DNA of 64,000 nucleotides. Origin: a virus. Its lineage: Duplodnaviria; Caudoviricetes. Location of the stretch: positions 64,001 to 128,000 of the IMG/VR virus record IMGVR_UViG_3300025150_000002. One strand, given 5' to 3'. Of this stretch, positions 30,800 through 38,681 are shown piece by piece; within the stretch, counting starts at the first letter, position 1, and each line of letters opens with the position of its first letter. The translations under genes were made by a program, and so were the position numbers. The notes beneath the pieces were generated by a model that saw only the letters and a list, made by a program, of their open reading frames with translations, was not told the DNA's origin and did no database searches.

Positions 30800-31102
30800 T
30801 TACTCCTCGCCCTTCGGCTTCTTGGTGGACTTCTTCTTGGCAGCCTCGGCCGCCTGGAGCGGAGTCATCGCCGGCACCGCCGGGATGGCCTTCAACATCG
30901 ATTTGTCGTCGATGGCGAAGTTCGGCACCTCGCGAGGGGTGACCATCCGGATCATGTTCTGTCTTACAAGGCGTGCGACCGACGCGTTGGTCGGATGCGC
31001 CTTGAACATGAACCCGGCTGGATAGCTCACGACGTTCCCGTTCGGGAACTCAACCGTGACAGCCGCTCGTGAGACCACTTGGTAAGTTTGATCGCGCTTC
31101 AT
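30800..31102 (-). CDS. Small virion protein consisting of the shared TYxVxS..SY..G..F..N.SV module
   Basis: Aligns with the N-termini of the 19351 and 24050 ORFs. Lies directly upstream of the sheath gene. Confidence 0.7.
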   Translation of the reverse strand: MKRDQTYQVVSRAAVTVEFPNGNVVSYPAGFMFKAHPTNASVARLVRQNMIRMVTPREVPNFAIDDKSMLKAIPAVPAMTPLQAAEAAKKKSTKKPKGEE

Positions 31103-31971
31103 CGTGAGCTCCCGTATACGCCTGTGCGAACGATGGGCCTACCTGTGCCGTAGAGTCCACCCTCACCAGGATCTGGATTCTGTACACCACCAGGGGAAAG
31201 AGGAACGCCGTTGGCATCAGCGGGAACCAATCCATAACCACCCGGTCCAGGGACAAGCTGGTAACCCGGACCGCCATATCCTGGCAGTGGCTGCGTAGTC
31301 TGCGTCCCCGTGAAAGCGGGAATGCAGATCGGCTCTCGATCCAATGTCAGTTCGCCCTCTACCTTCAACGAGAGTGAGTATCCCGGCACTCGTTCCACCA
31401 GAGAGCTTACATCAGTAAGGTCAGTAACGCCCTGTTGGAACGCGGCGTAGGTACGAGGATTGTTGATGCCGTCGAGCACAACAACCGTCTGACCGCGCAT
31501 TGGGAACCGGCGCATCATTATCTGAAGCAGGATCTGCGCTACCGTCCGGAACCGGGCCCAGCACTCGATTGAGTAGAAGAAGTCATAAGGTTGCTCCTTG
31601 TCCTTCTGCTCGTAGGAGGTCCACCCAGTGAGACCACCGGCAGACACACGCTTGGCGCCTTCGCACGGAAGACGGTAGGAGACCACAGGCGACAGAAGGC
31701 GGTCCTCAGCCGGAATGGTCGAGTCGCGGATGATGGAAATCATCGGCAAAACCGCACCAATCTGAGTCGGCTCAGGGCGCTTATAGACTACGAGTGCCCG
31801 ATCGATCGGTGTCTGGCGACCGTCGATCGTCACAAAGATGCCTTCGAGCGGCAGATACCACTCGTTCTTGACCTCGTCGGGGAGCGCACCGAGAGCCCTA
31901 GCGACAGCTTCGTCGAAGTCGTAGAAATCTACGCTTCCGGTCCGCTCGCCGAACTCTAGTCCATTGCTCAC
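31099..31971 (-). CDS. Putative tail completion/terminator protein
   Basis: Position upstream of the sheath. PYDFFYSIECWAR..YSLSLKVEGEL pattern. Function inferred from context. Confidence 0.5.
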   Translation of the reverse strand: MSNGLEFGERTGSVDFYDFDEAVARALGALPDEVKNEWYLPLEGIFVTIDGRQTPIDRALVVYKRPEPTQIGAVLPMISIIRDSTIPAEDRLLSPVVSYRLPCEGAKRVSAGGLTGWTSYEQKDKEQPYDFFYSIECWARFRTVAQILLQIMMRRFPMRGQTVVVLDGINNPRTYAAFQQGVTDLTDVSSLVERVPGYSLSLKVEGELTLDREPICIPAFTGTQTTQPLPGYGGPGYQLVPGPGGYGLVPADANGVPLSPGGVQNPDPGEGGLYGTGRPIVRTGVYGSSR

Positions 31972-32079
31972 GTGATCCTCTGTCGCATCAGATCGTGATG
32001 ATAACTGTTGATGCGAGAACTAGTCGAGGGTCTACAGCACTATCGGCTGCATCACAGACTAATTGATGCACACTAGAGG

Positions 32080-32109
32080 TTGACCTCGTAAGTGATCAGT
32101 GCGTATGCT
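32080..32109 (+). promoter_or_regulatory. sigma70-like promoter, probably giving a leaderless mRNA
   Basis: TTGACC (32080-85), 18 nt, TATGCT (32104-09). ATG lies 7 nt downstream at 32116 with no SD. Confidence 0.55.
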
Positions 32110-32115
32110 CGGTAA

Positions 32116-33228
32116 ATGCAGCGCGTCGTTCCTATCAAACTCAATGAAGATGTTGATCTTAGGGCGACGATTGAGTCGTTTAGACTCGTTCAGCAGCGCG
32201 TCTCGGATCTAGCCTTTGCGACCGGGTCATGGGATTCGGCGATCGCGCTCCACCGCGTCGCCTACCCACATGTCAGAGGAGCGCTCAAGTCGCAGCTCGT
32301 CTGCACAGCGATACGCCTTGTGGCCTCCGATTACGCTCGGCTTCGGCGGCTCAGAAAGCGTATCCACGGCGCGATTCACTTCAGCAAGCCGAGGGCTCTG
32401 TTCCTGATCGGGAAGGGGAAGCGGGACGCGTGCCCGCCTCGAAAAGAAACCATACGGATCTGGACCGTGGCCGGGCGGAAAGACATCGGCTTTACCATTC
32501 CGAAGGAGTTCGAGAGCTTGCTGAAACGGGTCACGTCCTACGACACACTAGCTGTCAGCATCAAAAGGGGACGACTCGTCGCCTCGCTCTCGGTGACTCT
32601 CAAGGCGCCGGATCGCAAGGGCTCGCGCCCGGCCGGCGTTTCGGCAGGTCTCAGAAACGATATAGCAGCAGTGGACGCCTCCGGACGAGCGCTCCGGATC
32701 GTCACAACAGCCCAAACAGTGATGGAGGAGACAACCCAGAAAACCAAAAAAAGACTTGAGCGACGTCTAGCTGCACGAAAGGCAGATGGGTACGAAACAC
32801 GATCCGTGCGACGTGCCCTCAAACGGCTGAGCAGACGGCGTCACCTGCGAACCAGAGCGTTTTGCCACGTAGCGGCAAACGAGCTGATCCGCTGGTTGGA
32901 TCTAGATGTGATCGTGGTAATGGAAGATCTTAGGCGGCCGCCACCGTCGCGGAGGAAGTCTTCCAGCAGTAACATCCCGCACTACTACGAAGGCCTTCGA
33001 CGGAGGCTTGAGGAGAAGTCGGAGGCTGCGGCTATCCCGGTCCACTATGTGAGCGTCACCGGTAATGCTCGGAGGTGCTCGGTCTGCGGCGACGCCGGCA
33101 CGATCGGCAGACGCGTGTTTAGTTGCGGGTCCTGCGGCAGCAGTGGTCCACTGAGCAAGAATGCCGCACTGAACATCAGGAACAAATTCACGGTCACACG
33201 GCCGTGGGCTGCTGTCAACCAGCCCTGA
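32116..33228 (+). CDS. tnpB: TnpB-family protein with inactivated RuvC (TldR-like)
   Basis: Overall TnpB layout. RuvC-I GVSAG (normally GVDxG), RuvC-II VMEDL intact, zinc finger CSVCG..CGSCG, RuvC-III LSKNAALNI (normally DxNAAxNI). No tnpA nearby. Confidence 0.85.
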   Translation: MQRVVPIKLNEDVDLRATIESFRLVQQRVSDLAFATGSWDSAIALHRVAYPHVRGALKSQLVCTAIRLVASDYARLRRLRKRIHGAIHFSKPRALFLIGKGKRDACPPRKETIRIWTVAGRKDIGFTIPKEFESLLKRVTSYDTLAVSIKRGRLVASLSVTLKAPDRKGSRPAGVSAGLRNDIAAVDASGRALRIVTTAQTVMEETTQKTKKRLERRLAARKADGYETRSVRRALKRLSRRRHLRTRAFCHVAANELIRWLDLDVIVVMEDLRRPPPSRRKSSSSNIPHYYEGLRRRLEEKSEAAAIPVHYVSVTGNARRCSVCGDAGTIGRRVFSCGSCGSSGPLSKNAALNIRNKFTVTRPWAAVNQP

Positions 33229-33272
33229 AGCTCGACAACGGGTAAGTGGCCTTGGTCACAGTTGATGAAAAG

Positions 33273-33968
33273 CTACTTCTGTCGCCAACGTGCTGAAAAC
33301 ACGTTGCGCCCCTTTTCGGTAACGGAGCTTGACTTTGATAGAGCTGCGACCTCGGCGTCGAGCCGGCCCCAAATGATCGTTCGAGGGAACCCGCCTAGCC
33401 CGTATTCAAGCCGTTGCGCAAGGAAGGGAACGTCGGCTAGAACCTTGCCATTGATCTTGGGGAGCGTGGCGTCGAACGCCTGAGGTGTCCTTCCGATCGT
33501 AGCCAGTTGTGACCTGATCTCGATCATCTCAGCGAGTCGAGCGCGGCGGTGAAAGTCAGTCTCTGACTCGGATGACGGCCTTACGAGCATATCGCCGCTA
33601 AAACCATCAGTTACTGCTGGAATGGTATCTAGTGTCCACGGGCTGTGTTGAGATAGAACACCAGCTACGTCGTCTCCACTAGAGATCCAAATCAGGCTAC
33701 GGTCAGCCACTATGCTCCCGTAGTCGATCTCGTTGACTCGGGCCTCGACCTCGAATCGGTCCTTGGCGACCTCCACAACAACGATGGACTTCTTGTAGAT
33801 GTCGTACCAACCACCATCATTGGGAATCAACGCGACGACCCGGTCACGTAGTCTGTAGGCGAGCTCCTTCGCGGAAGACTGCATTGCGACCTTACCGGCC
33901 GCTGGAACGCTAGTCTTTAGCTGCTCGATCTCTTTGACGAGCTCTTTGTCGTCAATCCAGAACCGCAC
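33273..33968 (-). CDS. Putative neck/head-tail joining protein
   Basis: Follows the portal gene. LEYGLGGFPR..IW motif resembles neck proteins. Assigned by context. Confidence 0.45.
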   Translation of the reverse strand: MRFWIDDKELVKEIEQLKTSVPAAGKVAMQSSAKELAYRLRDRVVALIPNDGGWYDIYKKSIVVVEVAKDRFEVEARVNEIDYGSIVADRSLIWISSGDDVAGVLSQHSPWTLDTIPAVTDGFSGDMLVRPSSESETDFHRRARLAEMIEIRSQLATIGRTPQAFDATLPKINGKVLADVPFLAQRLEYGLGGFPRTIIWGRLDAEVAALSKSSSVTEKGRNVFSARWRQK

Positions 33969-33971
33969 GAG

Positions 33972-36900
33972 CTAGTGCCGACCGTGTCCCCGCCCACGGC
34001 CCTGCGGTACCAGCTTGCCGTTACCGTTGCGAGACATGTAGGTGTGCTTGAGCTCTCGAATGAAGTGTTCGGTCTGGGTCAACCTGTGGGCGAGCGACTT
34101 GTTCTCGATCATGGCCTTCCGGAGAGAGTCTTGGATCTCAGCGTCGCGAGCCCTAGACTCCCGGTCCAGACGCTCTTCCAGACGCCGAGCCTGGTCATAG
34201 CGCTTCCATTCATTCTGGGTGTTGGGCCGCCCCGCCACTCCAGGGGGCGGTCCGATGTCCATCGGGGGCGGTGGACCTCCAGCCCCACCGGCGAGGGCTG
34301 GGCCCTCCATAGGCAGCCCGCCGGGTCCACCCGCACCACCACCACCACCGCCTGCGTCGCCCATCAGCTTCTGCTGCTCAGCCTGCTTCTTCATGTCCTC
34401 TTCGCGCTGCTTCTCGATCACATCAATCTCGTCGTCACTGAGCTTGAGGATTCGCTCCTGGATGTAGCGCATAGACACGAAAGGCTGGACGCGCGTGGCG
34501 AAGTCAGCCCGAGCGTTCTTGATCTCGTTGTGTGCCAACTCGTAGATCCCCGACGGAACCGTCATCATGACCTGAAGGTCTTGGTTGAACGGGTTGATAC
34601 CGCGCGAAGCCAGGTCGATTTGGATCAACCGACGAATAGTGTTCTTCATCTCGCGCTGAATACCCATGGTCACACGGGCGGCCCGAACGTCTTCGAACGA
34701 GAGGATCGTCTTAGGAGGCGGAGCATCGTCCTGACCGAGGTAGCTGCGCGGAACCTTGAGCACGCCGTGCAGCTTTCGGGCGAAGTACTCGACATCCTCT
34801 GTGGCCTGGTAGTCGGGACCCTGTAGTACTTCGACGCGGGCCAACTCGCGGTTCTCGCGGACTGCAATGAAGAAGTCCTGCATGTTGTCCATCGGGTTGT
34901 AGCGCATGTCCAGGCGCTGCGTGTTGTGGACAAACACACCAGCGGTCAGGGCGAAGTTGTGATAGTCCTCCACGGTGATGTCGTAAACATCCTCAAACCC
35001 GTCCGGAGTTACGCTGACCACTGTGTGGTTGTTCTTGCCGGCACCGACCAGTCGCCTTTCCTTCTTCTTCTGAGGCCCGCTCTTCCGCTCACCAGTTCCT
35101 GCAACCTGCTCCTTGTAATCGGCGAAGCTCTTGAAACCGCGCCGCTTCAAAAGCGCGGTCCAGCAGCCGCGACTCAACTTGGGCTTGATGGTTGTAGGCA
35201 GGTCCGCATAGATCCGAATGAAGTCCTCTTGCCCGTTGAGCCACGCGACCATGTCCTGGGACGTGATGGTCGGGTCGTTGTGCAGTTTCTGGTCCACCAT
35301 CGCGAAGACCAGGTTGTAGAGGCAATCAGCCCGCTCTGTCTTAGTGGCGGCCGCCTTTTTGTTGGCCTCGCTAATCTTCTCAGGATTCTCCTCGCGCCAA
35401 TCACGGATACGCCCGTATAACTCCTGCTTGAACACCGGATCATTCTGGGCCCTCTCTTTGAGAGCCTTCCGGGCCGCCTGGAGATGAATGGGGTGCCGAC
35501 CACCGGCGTGGTCTCCGGGGGTGATCGGTTCCAGATTTGACGGGTGATTGTTCTCCTTGTTTTCGTCACGATGATGGACATGAAGACCCTTGGCCTTGTA
35601 GTCCGGGTCAATCAGCTCCTCTGTGACCATTTGATGGACGTAGCGCTGCTTACCAAGCCCCGTGTCCTTGTACTTCCAGTAGTGCTGCGTCTCCTTGCTA
35701 CCGCGAGACAGGTAGAGGGGCATGAGCGACTCACCCTTGACGAGGTCTTGGGCCTGCTTGTAGGAGCCGTTTCGCAGCAGGAAGGGGTGGTCTCCTGTGC
35801 ATCGAACGATGGCGCCGCTGTCTACCACGACCCGGTAAACGGCCTTCTTCTTGCCTGAGAGGCCAGCGGCCGTGATCTTGCCGGGAACTACCCTGTGCCG
35901 CTTTGTATCGTAAGAGAATACGTAGTGGTGCTTCCCTTCCTTAGCGAGCCTGGGCACCTCCTCCGCCAGATCGCGCATCGACCTGTCCTTACCATCGAGA
36001 CAGGTGACCGGGGTTTCACCGGTGAGGCAGCGCGGGTTCACGAGCTTCTGCTTGCGCATGTCCTGCTTGGCCTTACGCAAGAACGAGTCGACCTTGTCCG
36101 AGGGTATATCAGTGACGTCGATGTAAAACGCGAAGCGTGCTGGCGCTCTTGTGTTATGGACACAAACCCCGTCTGCGATGAAGTTGTGCTCTTCGTCTTC
36201 GACGCCGATGTCCCAAATATCATCGACGCCGACCACTTCGACTCCACGCAGGGGCTCTGTCAGTGGCTGCTGCTTGAACGTGATGTCCATGCAGTAGGAC
36301 GTAGTGCCCTTCAGCGGCTGGGTCGACCCTGCGATGGTGCGGCCACCTTCGCGGGTTCGCTCGCGCACGAAGGTGACTACCAGTCCTAGCTGCATCGCGA
36401 GCTCGCGCACATCTTCGAGGAGTTGCTTGTTGCACAACTCGAAGCGCGCCTTTTCAAATCGGGTCTTGCGGCCCTCCCTGCGCGGGATGATGTGGGCGTC
36501 CGCATCAGCGAGACCACGGATCATCGCGAGCTTGATCTCTGGACTCGCGCGGAACACCCACTCAGGAAGGCGCTTGTCGTGGGCCCCCGGAATGAATCCA
36601 TTGAGAAGCATGAACTCGGCGAACTTGCTTGAGACAAATGAGTAGGCCCCGAGGCGGTAGTCCTGGTCATTGACCAGCTTCACACCTGGAACATAGCGCT
36701 CGAACAGGCCCTTGTAGCGATCGTTGATTTGGTCGTCCTCGCCCAGGGCAAATCCGATCTCGTTCTGTGAGACGAACCCGCCCTTTTGAGTCCTGGTGGT
36801 GATGAACCCGTCACCAAGCATAAAGCCCCACCACCGGGCGAAGTCTTCGTCGACTACATCTGGGACAGTGACTCCCTTTACCGGGATTCCGCGATCACCG

Positions 36901-38681
36901 CCCCAGTGCTCCTCGACATCGAGGTGCTCGTCGGTGTAGCCGTTAGCTTCAAGTAGCGCTACCGCTGTCTCTGTCTTCAACTCGTAGTCGCCGTTGAAGA
37001 AGTCCCTGGCGCGGTAGTGGTGAACTCCCATCGACCTAGCGATGTCCGGATAAGTCTGCCTACGCACGACCTCGTTCGGAGACCGCAGTCTCGCCTTCGA
37101 GTGAAGGTCAGGCTTCTTGAGTTCGATCTCCTCCCAGTCGTCAGTGTTCTTCTTGGGGGTCACGAGGCGGTGGCGCGTCGGGTCGAGATCTTTCACCTCG
37201 ACGTACTTCAAGAACCTGGCCTTGGGGCGGCCCTTACCCTGCCCGATGATCTCCTCAACCAGGACTGGGTGGGTGGCGTTCGCGTACAACTCGCGATGGT
37301 CACTGAAAACCCGGTAGATCTTGTCCTGCCCGTTGTGCTTCTTGTAGCAGACCCGGGTCTTCCGGAGCTTGTCCTCCTTGGTGAAGGAGTAGACCTCATC
37401 GCCCTCTTCAAGCTCCCTGATGGCCTTCCGTCCTTCGGGGGTCCAGATCTGCGAATCGCCGCGTAGGCAGAGCTTGTAGATGAGCATGGCATCTTCGAGG
37501 AGGACGAGCCGCTTCCAGATCCACCGTGCTCCGTCAGCTACACCGTAGCCGTATGGGCAGCGGCGAACCGTGCCTCGCAACCGTGAGTGCAGGACCTGCC
37601 ACTCCTCGAAAAGCGCTACGTGGTCAGGCACCTTAGTCTGGCCCGCGAGCATGCCGCGCAGGTCCGTGGCGTCCTGAGTGAATTTACCGGTGACGTCCTG
37701 AACGTAGCCGATGAGCGCGCCGTTCGACTGCTCCACGCGCCTCATGGTCGGGACTGGCAGGGAGTTTAGGCCGACGACACCATTCTCGGTGACCAGAACC
37801 TCTTCGTAGTTATTGCCCATCTTCACGGTCGTGTAGACCATGCTCCAGATATCGTCCTCAATCCTCAAACGCCTGTTGAGGAGCGTATCAGTCATGTCCT
37901 TGATGGCTTCGTCGCCCGAGTGAACCCATACGGTCTTGCCTGTGTCGATGTCTGGCTGGGTAGCATCGTTGGTGAAGTAGTGATGTGCGCTGTTATGCAC
38001 AACAACTCCGTTGGCAACGAAGTTCTTGGTCCCGGTTGAGACGTCGTAGACGTCTTCTTCTCCTGCCGGCTGGGCCGCCTGGACGACACGCAGGGTCCCT
38101 GAGATTGTGTGCAGGAAGGAGCACATTCCGTGCGCCTCGAAGCCTGCCCACGTGGAGACGACTACCGTCCCCTCGGTCATGTCAGATGCGTTGATGTAGC
38201 CGTGTTCAACCGTGAGGAACTTGTGATCTGGTGTACACCGGATGTTCTCACCGTTACTGAACCCGAGCTGCACGACTGGCTGCTTGTTCCCGGTCACACG
38301 CGGGTTATTGGTGACCGTCTTTGTAAGTCGCTGCGTCTTGGTGTCGTAAGCGAGGATCTCTACCCCACCACCGTTAGCCGCCAGATCGTGTAGACGGAAG
38401 GGCTTGATGATCGAACCATCAACCACATAGATCAGCGTGTCGCCGGTAAGGCAGTTGATGTCCGGGTAGTCATCCATCTGCTCGTAGTCGGCATACCTGT
38501 CCATCAGGTTCTGCGAGACCGAGAGCAGCCCGCCTACATCCTCTCGCCCCCACACCGAGAACATCGAGGTCGGGATGTGCTTTTCTGCATCAGCAGAAGG
38601 CGATTCGGCCCTGTCACGTTCTGCGCGCTCTCGGCCAAAAACTTGGCGAAGGTAATTCAGCGCATCGTCTCGAAGTGCCAT
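33972..38681 (-). CDS. Portal protein, T4 gp20-like, with three inteins (about 607 aa after splicing)
   Basis: Extein motifs YEQMDDYPDI, LEDAMLIYKL|TRAPARFAFYIDV, MQDFFIA, EDVEYF..KL..VLKVPRSYL. Confidence 0.9.
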   Translation of the reverse strand: MALRDDALNYLRQVFGRERAERDRAESPSADAEKHIPTSMFSVWGREDVGGLLSVSQNLMDRYADYEQMDDYPDINCLTGDTLIYVVDGSIIKPFRLHDLAANGGGVEILAYDTKTQRLTKTVTNNPRVTGNKQPVVQLGFSNGENIRCTPDHKFLTVEHGYINASDMTEGTVVVSTWAGFEAHGMCSFLHTISGTLRVVQAAQPAGEEDVYDVSTGTKNFVANGVVVHNSAHHYFTNDATQPDIDTGKTVWVHSGDEAIKDMTDTLLNRRLRIEDDIWSMVYTTVKMGNNYEEVLVTENGVVGLNSLPVPTMRRVEQSNGALIGYVQDVTGKFTQDATDLRGMLAGQTKVPDHVALFEEWQVLHSRLRGTVRRCPYGYGVADGARWIWKRLVLLEDAMLIYKLCLRGDSQIWTPEGRKAIRELEEGDEVYSFTKEDKLRKTRVCYKKHNGQDKIYRVFSDHRELYANATHPVLVEEIIGQGKGRPKARFLKYVEVKDLDPTRHRLVTPKKNTDDWEEIELKKPDLHSKARLRSPNEVVRRQTYPDIARSMGVHHYRARDFFNGDYELKTETAVALLEANGYTDEHLDVEEHWGGDRGIPVKGVTVPDVVDEDFARWWGFMLGDGFITTRTQKGGFVSQNEIGFALGEDDQINDRYKGLFERYVPGVKLVNDQDYRLGAYSFVSSKFAEFMLLNGFIPGAHDKRLPEWVFRASPEIKLAMIRGLADADAHIIPRREGRKTRFEKARFELCNKQLLEDVRELAMQLGLVVTFVRERTREGGRTIAGSTQPLKGTTSYCMDITFKQQPLTEPLRGVEVVGVDDIWDIGVEDEEHNFIADGVCVHNTRAPARFAFYIDVTDIPSDKVDSFLRKAKQDMRKQKLVNPRCLTGETPVTCLDGKDRSMRDLAEEVPRLAKEGKHHYVFSYDTKRHRVVPGKITAAGLSGKKKAVYRVVVDSGAIVRCTGDHPFLLRNGSYKQAQDLVKGESLMPLYLSRGSKETQHYWKYKDTGLGKQRYVHQMVTEELIDPDYKAKGLHVHHRDENKENNHPSNLEPITPGDHAGGRHPIHLQAARKALKERAQNDPVFKQELYGRIRDWREENPEKISEANKKAAATKTERADCLYNLVFAMVDQKLHNDPTITSQDMVAWLNGQEDFIRIYADLPTTIKPKLSRGCWTALLKRRGFKSFADYKEQVAGTGERKSGPQKKKERRLVGAGKNNHTVVSVTPDGFEDVYDITVEDYHNFALTAGVFVHNTQRLDMRYNPMDNMQDFFIAVRENRELARVEVLQGPDYQATEDVEYFARKLHGVLKVPRSYLGQDDAPPPKTILSFEDVRAARVTMGIQREMKNTIRRLIQIDLASRGINPFNQDLQVMMTVPSGIYELAHNEIKNARADFATRVQPFVSMRYIQERILKLSDDEIDVIEKQREEDMKKQAEQQKLMGDAGGGGGGAGGPGGLPMEGPALAGGAGGPPPPMDIGPPPGVAGRPNTQNEWKRYDQARRLEERLDRESRARDAEIQDSLRKAMIENKSLAHRLTQTEHFIRELKHTYMSRNGNGKLVPQGRGRGHGRH
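34923..36029 (-). mobile_element. Portal intein 3 (HNH, 369 aa)
   Basis: CLTGET..TGDHPF..VHHRDENKENNHPSNL..NFALTAGVFVHN|T. Confidence 0.9.
36153..37469 (-). mobile_element. Portal intein 2 (LAGLIDADG, 439 aa)
   Basis: CLRGDS..GFMLGDG..IRGLADADA..NFIADGVCVHN|T. Confidence 0.9.
37992..38453 (-). mobile_element. Portal intein 1 (mini-intein, 154 aa)
   Basis: CLTGDT..TPDHKF..NFVANGVVVHN|S. Confidence 0.9.

Follow-up and report, generated by a model that had tools for sequence, protein, structure and literature searches.

A TldR-like TnpB, predicted to be nuclease-dead, and its adjacent omegaRNA fixed among the late genes of large phages

We analyzed a tnpB gene at positions 32116-33228 of a 64,000-nt stretch of DNA (the window throughout), which comprises bases 64001-128000 of the IMG/VR virus record IMGVR_UViG_3300025150_000002, from a groundwater phage of about 200 kb; the record itself has 203.5 kb at 58% G+C and a completeness estimate of 89%. 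Comparison with relatives shows, at the level of sequence, a nuclease-dead TnpB kept under selection, with its own promoter and an omegaRNA that is likewise selected, fixed in a phage lineage. The most likely activity of such a complex would be RNA-guided binding of DNA rather than cutting, and we give a probability of about 60% to the overall reading that the phage-fixed dead TnpB and its omegaRNA bind DNA under guidance without cleaving it. By its sequence features the protein is a new TldR-like lineage fixed in large phages and a candidate member of the functional class of TldRs; known dead TnpBs with adjacent guide RNAs (gRNAs) are RNA-guided repressors with scaffolds of 97-100 nt and guides of 9-16 nt (10.1101/2023.11.30.569447; 10.64898/2026.09.22.753285).

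The features of the protein-coding gene are the following:
32116..33228, plus strand: open reading frame (ORF) of the nuclease-dead, tldR-like tnpB, 370 amino acids, with a TnpB/Cas12f fold, a clade-wide S/A-E-S site and strong purifying selection
32641..32643, plus strand: codon of Ser176 at the RuvC-I Asp position, placed by alignment to solved chains
32923..32925, plus strand: codon of Glu270, the RuvC-II glutamate of the EDL motif
33076..33135, plus strand: zinc finger CxxC...CxxC (C321, C324, C337, C340)
33154..33156, plus strand: codon of Ser347 at the RuvC-III Asp position

The 370 codons of the ORF are uninterrupted. Its product matches Pfam PF07282 (Cas12f1-like TNB) above the cut-off (E 4e-9), PF01385 (OrfB_IS605) weakly, NCBIfam guided_TnpB below the curated cut-off (E 4.6e-18) and PHROG 506 ‘transposase’ (E 2e-17). 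An AlphaFold2 model built from 34 homologues (mean predicted local distance difference test score 87) has its best Foldseek matches among Cas12f and TnpB ternary complexes (E 1e-14 to 1e-16), and both sequence and fold (WED-REC-RuvC-TNB with a zinc finger) place the protein in the TnpB/Cas12f superfamily. An earlier note on this DNA had described a full-length, uninterrupted TnpB and proposed structure prediction and alignment as a check; ORF, Pfam matches and full-length fold agree with it. Catalytic positions were read from HMMER (phmmer) alignments to solved TnpB/Cas12f chains, which put Ser176 at the RuvC-I aspartate (GVSAG versus GVDLG in the solved chains), Glu270 at the retained RuvC-II glutamate (VMEDL versus AVEDL) and Ser347 at the RuvC-III aspartate (LSKNAALNI versus RDENAALNI). 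Instead of the catalytic D-E-D triad the site thus reads S176-E270-S347, and the note's account of two replaced aspartates beside an intact glutamate and zinc finger is confirmed.

This constellation is not peculiar to the window copy. From a search space of 5.8 billion proteins 66 relatives were returned, which we aligned and which form three groups. Clade A consists of metagenomic sequences, 34 full-length proteins plus fragments, that are 57-72% identical to the window copy; all 34 full-length members (34/34) have Ser or Ala at the RuvC-I position, the RuvC-II Glu, Ser (once Gly) at the RuvC-III position and a retained zinc finger, with Glu270, the adjacent Asp271 and the four cysteines invariant. 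Clade B (46-50% identical to the window copy) is D-E-D, with one member having N at the first position, and clade C (33-40% identical), in which some proteins are annotated as IS200/IS605 TnpB, is also D-E-D. In a maximum-likelihood tree clade A is a single branch with support of 100/100, clade B (100/99) is its sister with support of 99/95 at the joint node, and clade C lies outside, so on the simplest reading activity was probably lost once, at the base of clade A. The ratio of non-synonymous to synonymous substitution rates (dN/dS, Nei-Gojobori) is 0.08-0.14 within clade A, where the least saturated pair has a dN of 0.09 and a dS of 0.88, and the one close pair of clade B gives about the same value (0.11). 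The purifying selection that the earlier note had wished to see in relatives is therefore present, and the RuvC inactivation is conserved, not sporadic, and under selection, one of the features that characterize TldRs. The window copy sits on a long terminal branch, yet it is no outlier at clade-conserved positions. As a separate observation, synonymous variability falls to about 0.5 of its maximum at 32740-32860 (codons 209-247) and 32140-32210 (codons 9-31); the first of these stretches is Arg/Lys-rich and codon bias may explain its dip, while an embedded element is possible.

Directly at the 3′ end of the gene we identified a conserved RNA and, following it, a predicted guide:
33190..33266, plus strand: omegaRNA/gRNA scaffold of about 77 nt with four hairpins and a pseudoknot, delimited by covariation, a covariance model and the collapse of synonymous variation
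33214..33219, plus strand: 5′ strand of the pseudoknot, GTCAAC, in the loop of stem 2, pairing with 33261-33266
33261..33266, plus strand: 3′ strand of the pseudoknot, GTTGAT, the last scaffold element, co-varying with 33214-33219
33267..33286, plus strand: predicted guide, its start taken from the right-end divergence of insertion sequence (IS)-borne relatives and its length of 16-20 nt assumed

The scaffold overlaps the last 12 codons of tnpB. In clade A these codons and the 44-bp spacer up to the stop of the convergent gene are almost invariant, whereas other synonymous sites vary freely, and normalized synonymous entropy drops from about 0.75 to 0.17 over the scaffold. Its structure, derived from 20 distinct sequences of clades A and B, has hairpins at 33190-33205, 33206-33225, 33230-33243 and 33246-33259. 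Counted over all sequences, 99% of the paired cells hold, compared with 14-42% when the partners are slid, and 13 of 32 pairs show compensatory changes on both sides, values that none of 500 shuffles reached. All six pseudoknot pairs hold in 20/20 sequences, with three of them altered on both sides, and the variants follow lineage (GTTAAC:GTTRAC, GTCAAC:GTTGAT, GCCAAC:GTTGGC/GTTGGT and GCCAGC:GCTGGC). Hairpin 4 differs between the clades, with 5 bp closed by a loop of the UUCG type in clade A and 8-9 bp closed by a GNRA loop in clade B, and both kinds of tetraloop read correctly on the plus strand only. Unaided, RNAalifold recovers hairpins 1, 3 and 4 and the long-range helix. It also proposes a GGCU/AGCU helix that would bring AAAAGCUA into the scaffold; this we rejected, as it has no compensatory support and both existing variants break it, while stem 2 does have compensatory changes. 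A clade A copy (L014:1147-1255) with the pseudoknot-loop change GTTAGC gains an early TAG, two codons ahead of the normal stop; wobble pairs keep the RNA pairing and the protein becomes two residues shorter.

A covariance model of the scaffold matches the 3′ end of tnpB in the clade C loci that score (25/25 matches at this place, E 1e-6 to 1e-12), and it finds no further omegaRNA copies in the window or in the rest of the genome; a search of 31500-33800 against Rfam gave nothing meaningful. Because the model matches the 3′ end of the tnpB of active relatives, we take the scaffold to be an omegaRNA inherited from the transposon. An adjacent conserved guide-RNA scaffold is another mark of TldRs, and the window RNA is of the right kind compared with known TldR gRNAs, if somewhat shorter. 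The hairpin GGGCTG/CAGCCC that the earlier note had pointed out (33206-33211/33220-33225) is real and is stem 2 of this larger conserved RNA. The same note saw no right-end structure, a view that does not hold given the conserved scaffold derived from the right end, and it did not locate the guide RNA; one of its two proposed regions, 31975-32080, is a pair of divergent promoters.

These promoters belong to the upstream spacer:
32080..32109, plus strand: promoter-like TTGACC-18-TATGCT, 6 nt before the ATG in a leaderless layout
31998..32027, minus strand: outward promoter-like TCGACT-18-TATCAT, upstream of a late gene of 290 amino acids
31986..32079, no strand assigned: conserved intergenic blocks, probably derived from the transposon left end, with AGTCGA and CACTA invariant across clades A and B

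In a consensus scan of 1.7 kb these plus- and minus-strand sites were the only two promoter-like sites, and each has a variable spacer between hexamers that fall within conserved blocks; the hexamers of the outward site are conserved in clades A and B. In clade A the -35 element of the tnpB promoter is invariant, the -10 element is TATGCT, TATCCT, TAGACT or TATTCT, and 6-7 nt separate it from the start codon with no Shine-Dalgarno sequence, which bears out the leaderless promoter of the earlier note. The layout CACTA, -35, TAGTG, -10 is common to the phage copies and their IS-borne relatives. We therefore read the spacer as two probable back-to-back promoters within a former transposon left end, one of which would face the sheath operon; the downstream late operon, with the genes of the 290-residue protein and the sheath, may now take its promoter from the insertion, so that the DNA would not easily be lost. 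The idea that the upstream blocks are a general phage promoter motif was rejected, as they are not repeated anywhere else in the genome. Two side observations concern the same signals. The inverted repeat CACTA...TAGTG brackets the -35 element and spacer (window 32068-32103, plus strand; clade C loci, e.g. L008:9940-9990) and is kept from IS-borne relatives to phage copies, and may serve as an operator or form a DNA hairpin. A terminator-like score is obtained on the minus strand at 33189-33206 for the stem 1 complement of the omegaRNA together with the AATTTGTT that follows it, and this site could stop portal-side late transcripts before tnpB.

The gene lies on the boundary between tail and portal genes, antisense to late genes on the minus strand, as the gene map bears out for the placement given in the earlier note:
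31099..31971, minus strand: divergent late gene, 290 amino acids, no family match, followed by a 100-residue gene and then the tail sheath
33273..33968, minus strand: convergent late gene, 231 amino acids, no family match, whose own stop codon is the end of the conserved RNA block
33972-38681, minus strand: portal gene, 1569 amino acids, with inteins, upstream of the 231-residue gene in the late direction

The tail sheath (976 amino acids) is downstream in the late direction, beyond the genes of 290 and 100 residues. Every contig that we read has the order sheath, 100, 290, antisense tnpB and 230 amino acids, which answers the earlier note's call for synteny in relatives. Five IMG/VR contigs with a clade A gene have it in the identical slot and orientation, with neighbour identities of 78-84% (290-residue protein), 79-90% (sheath) and 42-50% (231-residue protein); slot and orientation are unchanged in deeper clade A members, and clade B uses the identical slot wherever a gene map was obtained, in phages whose 290-residue protein is 62-69% identical. 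In six more distant phages (44-49% neighbour-protein identity) the site is empty: the two late genes are adjacent, 33-43 bp apart, and the spacer holds a promoter-like TTGAGA-17-TAGAAT with a leaderless-type start. This site is conserved in all six (L057-L062, e.g. L057:4938-4985), the start codon lying 8-10 nt beyond it, and in this group of phages late genes with little or no leader seem to be frequent. In a second scan, which used profiles, no phage of clade A/B relatedness lacked tnpB. Synteny, tree and empty sites together show, by comparison of genomes, a single insertion of an IS200/IS605-type tnpB in an ancestor, followed by vertical inheritance.

Within the 203-kb record tnpB is single-copy, and no Y1 transposase, serine recombinase or tyrosine integrase was matched; the absence of tnpA reported earlier is thus confirmed, and a lytic lifestyle, also proposed, is suggested only by the missing integrase match in an 89%-complete record. 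Of the hallmarks of an IS200/IS605 transposon, namely TnpA, left- and right-end hairpins and multiple copies in varied contexts, TnpA and further copies are missing, and the context is always identical. Transposon context has been lost and a stable gene association gained, as in TldRs, while sequences derived from the element ends persist. Since the dead site is clade-wide, dN/dS is about 0.1, the slot is one and syntenic, and the guide-RNA gene is structured, the data support a TnpB that was domesticated and inactivated, and no decaying insertion. The earlier proposal of a domesticated RNA-guided regulator accordingly stands for domestication, inactivation and the kept guide-RNA gene, with regulation as a putative role. 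DNA and protein searches of the GenBank phage collection found no match. The genome is crowded with homing endonucleases and inteins, and the portal, at 1569 residues here against 759-1266 in relatives, is an example: precomputed Pfam matches in a relative's portal include two intein splicing domains and LAGLIDADG and HNH modules. From the differing lengths and these domains it follows that the intein load of the portal varies between related phages.

The weakest part of the argument concerns what the complex would bind. Where clade C elements in different contexts have near-identical right ends, they cease to resemble one another directly after the ..AGTTGAC strand of the pseudoknot, and this is why we place the guide start at 33267. 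Conservation across clades A and B extends over the first nine guide nucleotides, GAAAAGCTA (N-AAAAGCTA). A CTA within the guide is the complement of the neighbour's TAG stop and further guide bases are the neighbour's variable last codons; in every relative the guide lies across the end of the convergent gene, taking in its stop and final codons (from 33273 in the window). The junctions at the left ends of clade C elements suggest CCAT as a candidate target-adjacent motif (TAM), and some clade B phages retain a TCCATC relic where the left boundary lies. In four clade C relatives (L024, L025, L028 and L045) the left and right ends have a common inner hairpin (cccccgg-tttcaa-ccggggg), and all their left ends begin with or follow CCAT, making it a candidate TAM for the whole family. 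The earlier note had instead drawn attention to TTGAT, copies of which include those at 32008, 32063 and 33262. The copy at 33262 is the 3′ strand of the pseudoknot and co-varies within it, that at 32008 is not conserved and that at 32063 is conserved in clade A only; with the upstream copies absent from sister-clade conservation, TTGAT is not supported as a TAM.

Several points weigh against guided DNA binding. The guide is ancestral flanking DNA that overlaps a coding region, and perhaps its retargeting never took place. The search of the 203-kb genome gave no target flanked by a TAM, with no matches at 13 or more of 16 guide bases beyond chance, and it showed a single further copy of the conserved 8-mer AAAAGCTA; a pattern search of three related IMG/VR records (17-135 kb) gave fewer matches than the control. 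We infer CCAT only from the left ends of relatives, and the -10 element of clade B is poor. Single-sequence folding gives a different fold (z = -1.5), no better than shuffles, and the RNA structure is consequently drawn from the comparative data alone.

Broader searches gave a similar picture. Exact words of at least 12 nt from 33150-33340 and 31972-32115 have chance-level matches only in the 203-kb genome, the best matches in the genome (a 13-mer at genome position 4985 and 16/20 at window position 1100) are both inside coding regions, and no guide match was found within 10 kb on either side in eight related loci. At least 118 stretches in viral contigs fit the predicted TAM and guide, none of the 80 loci checked adjoined homologues of the neighbouring genes, and we regard these as chance hits only. 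A scan of GTDB, with one genome per prokaryotic species, found no clade A/B copy and no clue to the host, only IS-borne clade C-like copies of about 39% identity (Methanoculleus, Chloroflexales and other metagenome-assembled genomes). Among sequencing runs, none of RNA was listed as containing the locus. The target searches speak against a long guide by which the phage would control genes of its own, and the timing of phage genes suggested earlier is not borne out, there being no guide match in the 203-kb genome or the three related records; the silencing of host defence genes, suggested alongside it, is conjectural. What is left is host DNA, co-infecting relatives or a non-canonical role.

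On the reading that we prefer, guided binding without cutting, an IS200/IS605-type tnpB landed once in the short spacer between two late genes of a phage ancestor, and on the branch of the window phage both RuvC aspartates were replaced by Ser or Ala, while the remaining protein, the leaderless promoter and the 3′ scaffold were held under strong purifying selection. The protein would bind the scaffold of about 77 nt transcribed from 33190-33266, with the guide from 33267, and the ribonucleoprotein would bind TAM-flanked complementary DNA in the manner of TldRs, without cleavage, blocking RNA polymerase or another DNA transaction. As the search of the phage's own genome gave no target, this most likely lies outside, in the host or in co-infecting relatives; this is the weakest step.

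It is conceivable, if rather unlikely, that the complex is a functional ribonucleoprotein of another sort than a DNA-bound repressor, one that acts on RNA or in cis, or that recruits a factor as dCas12f recruits sigma-E. In the cis variant the complex, or its RNA by itself, could govern the termination or stability of late transcripts, or their read-through between genes on the portal side and those on the sheath side. At its 3′ end, and in any read-through, the convergent late transcript is perfectly complementary to guide and scaffold, the overlap with the convergent stop and last codons recurs in every relative with conservation ending exactly at the stop, and no DNA target appeared in the genome; the minus-strand complement of stem 1 with its T-rich run also scores terminator-like, and dead homologues of Cas12f have been exapted as transcriptional activators (PMC13472631). 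However, there is no sigma factor or partner gene at the locus, both neighbours being late genes without a family match, and the tetraloops and pseudoknot indicate a protein-bound RNA of the omegaRNA type. Moreover, we know of no RNA targeting by TnpB.

We consider it improbable that the gene is an anti-competitor device derived from a homing element, with the intact sister cutting and converting the empty sites of co-infecting relatives without the insertion, after the manner of transposon non-restorative homing, and the dead form only binding that site in competitors and so blocking their late promoter and Shine-Dalgarno region. The guide is right-end flanking DNA, as in every IS605 TnpB, the genome is rich in homing endonucleases and inteins, and TnpB homing between co-infecting replicons has been discussed (PMC13565253). 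Empty-site phages do exist and their spacer has a promoter-like site for the downstream late gene, but they are distant (44-49%), and between their site and the guide only about 6 of 12 bases agree. Without a clade A/B-related phage that lacks the gene the selective agent is not visible, and the TAM and guide scan of viral contigs gave chance matches only.

That the protein is a functionless, dead selfish relic, with the DNA kept for cis elements such as the outward promoter of the sheath operon, is already disfavoured and has in our view a slim chance. An ORF of 370 codons has stayed open in more than 40 diverged copies at a dN/dS of about 0.1 and compensatory changes have maintained the 3′ scaffold, even if the outward promoter-like site is conserved in clades A and B in the region derived from the left end and no target was found. 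Least credible of all is a surviving nuclease with a non-canonical active site: the RuvC-II Glu, adjacent Asp271 and zinc finger are invariant, but both metal-binding aspartates are Ser or Ala across the clade and a single Asp-to-Ala change abolishes TnpB and Cas12 cleavage.

A wider interpretation, which we hold tentatively and as one possibility among others, is that this one locus preserves a whole exaptation path, from an IS-borne nuclease through a phage-fixed D-E-D homing nuclease to a dead ribonucleoprotein whose guide is hard-wired to the stop-codon region of its neighbour, with a role new for TldRs. The intact sister clade at the same locus and the abundance of inteins and homing endonucleases fit TnpB as a homing element. 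If this path is true, the dead form could control the convergent late transcript, or bind DNA of co-infecting relatives or the host while a large virulent phage grows lytically.

Among known systems the closest are the TldRs, which were discovered bioinformatically by such features and include fliC-, oppF- and csrA-associated clades (Wiegand et al., 10.1101/2023.11.30.569447). Like them, the window copy combines a TnpB fold and conserved loss of RuvC acidic residues with a gRNA scaffold just 3′ of the gene, no TnpA and a stable new neighbourhood. The 506 dead TnpBs reported form several independent clades, one of which, in temperate enterobacterial prophages, is phage-borne as well. To our knowledge, the phage-borne examples so far are only temperate enterobacterial prophages that swap flagellin. 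Unlike TldRs, the window copy is not beside fliC, oppF or csrA but in the virion module of phages of about 200 kb with no integrase match; it keeps a complete zinc finger and RuvC C-terminus, its guide is still the ancestral flank overlapping the neighbour's stop codon, no promoter target was found for it in the phage genome or three related records, and a nuclease-intact sister clade occupies the identical locus.

With IS200/IS605 TnpB-omegaRNA systems (e.g. ISDra2 and the roughly 39%-identical clade C) it shares a homologous protein, a homologous 3′ RNA in which a pseudoknot immediately precedes the guide, and the promoter layout CACTA, -35, TAGTG, -10 with a short or no leader. It differs in lacking both aspartates and TnpA and in being single-copy and immobile at one syntenic site; its left-end hairpin is not recognizable, whereas clade C elements have common left- and right-end hairpins in varied flanks. 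Free-standing homing endonucleases (T4 Seg/Mob; ‘intronless homing’) are similar in that a selfish nuclease gene lies between conserved phage genes, with presence/absence polymorphism, in a genome rich in such elements; targeting here would by contrast be RNA-guided, and the window copy is predicted to be unable to cut. In the literature we came across neither a dead TnpB lineage that has become fixed within the structural module of large phages nor a dead and an intact TnpB at one orthologous locus.

TldRs are a recent discovery, and few of their clades have an established role. The present gene adds a well-sampled, independent lineage in large uncultured phages of groundwater and sediment, inside the virion gene module, and it comes as a compact system (a 370-residue protein and a scaffold of about 77 nt) for which the scaffold is defined, the start of the guide is predicted and nature provides a nuclease-intact sister in the identical position. 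This pairing of dead and intact forms makes it testable what changes when an RNA-guided nuclease turns binder, and whether TnpB first spread in phages as a homing element.

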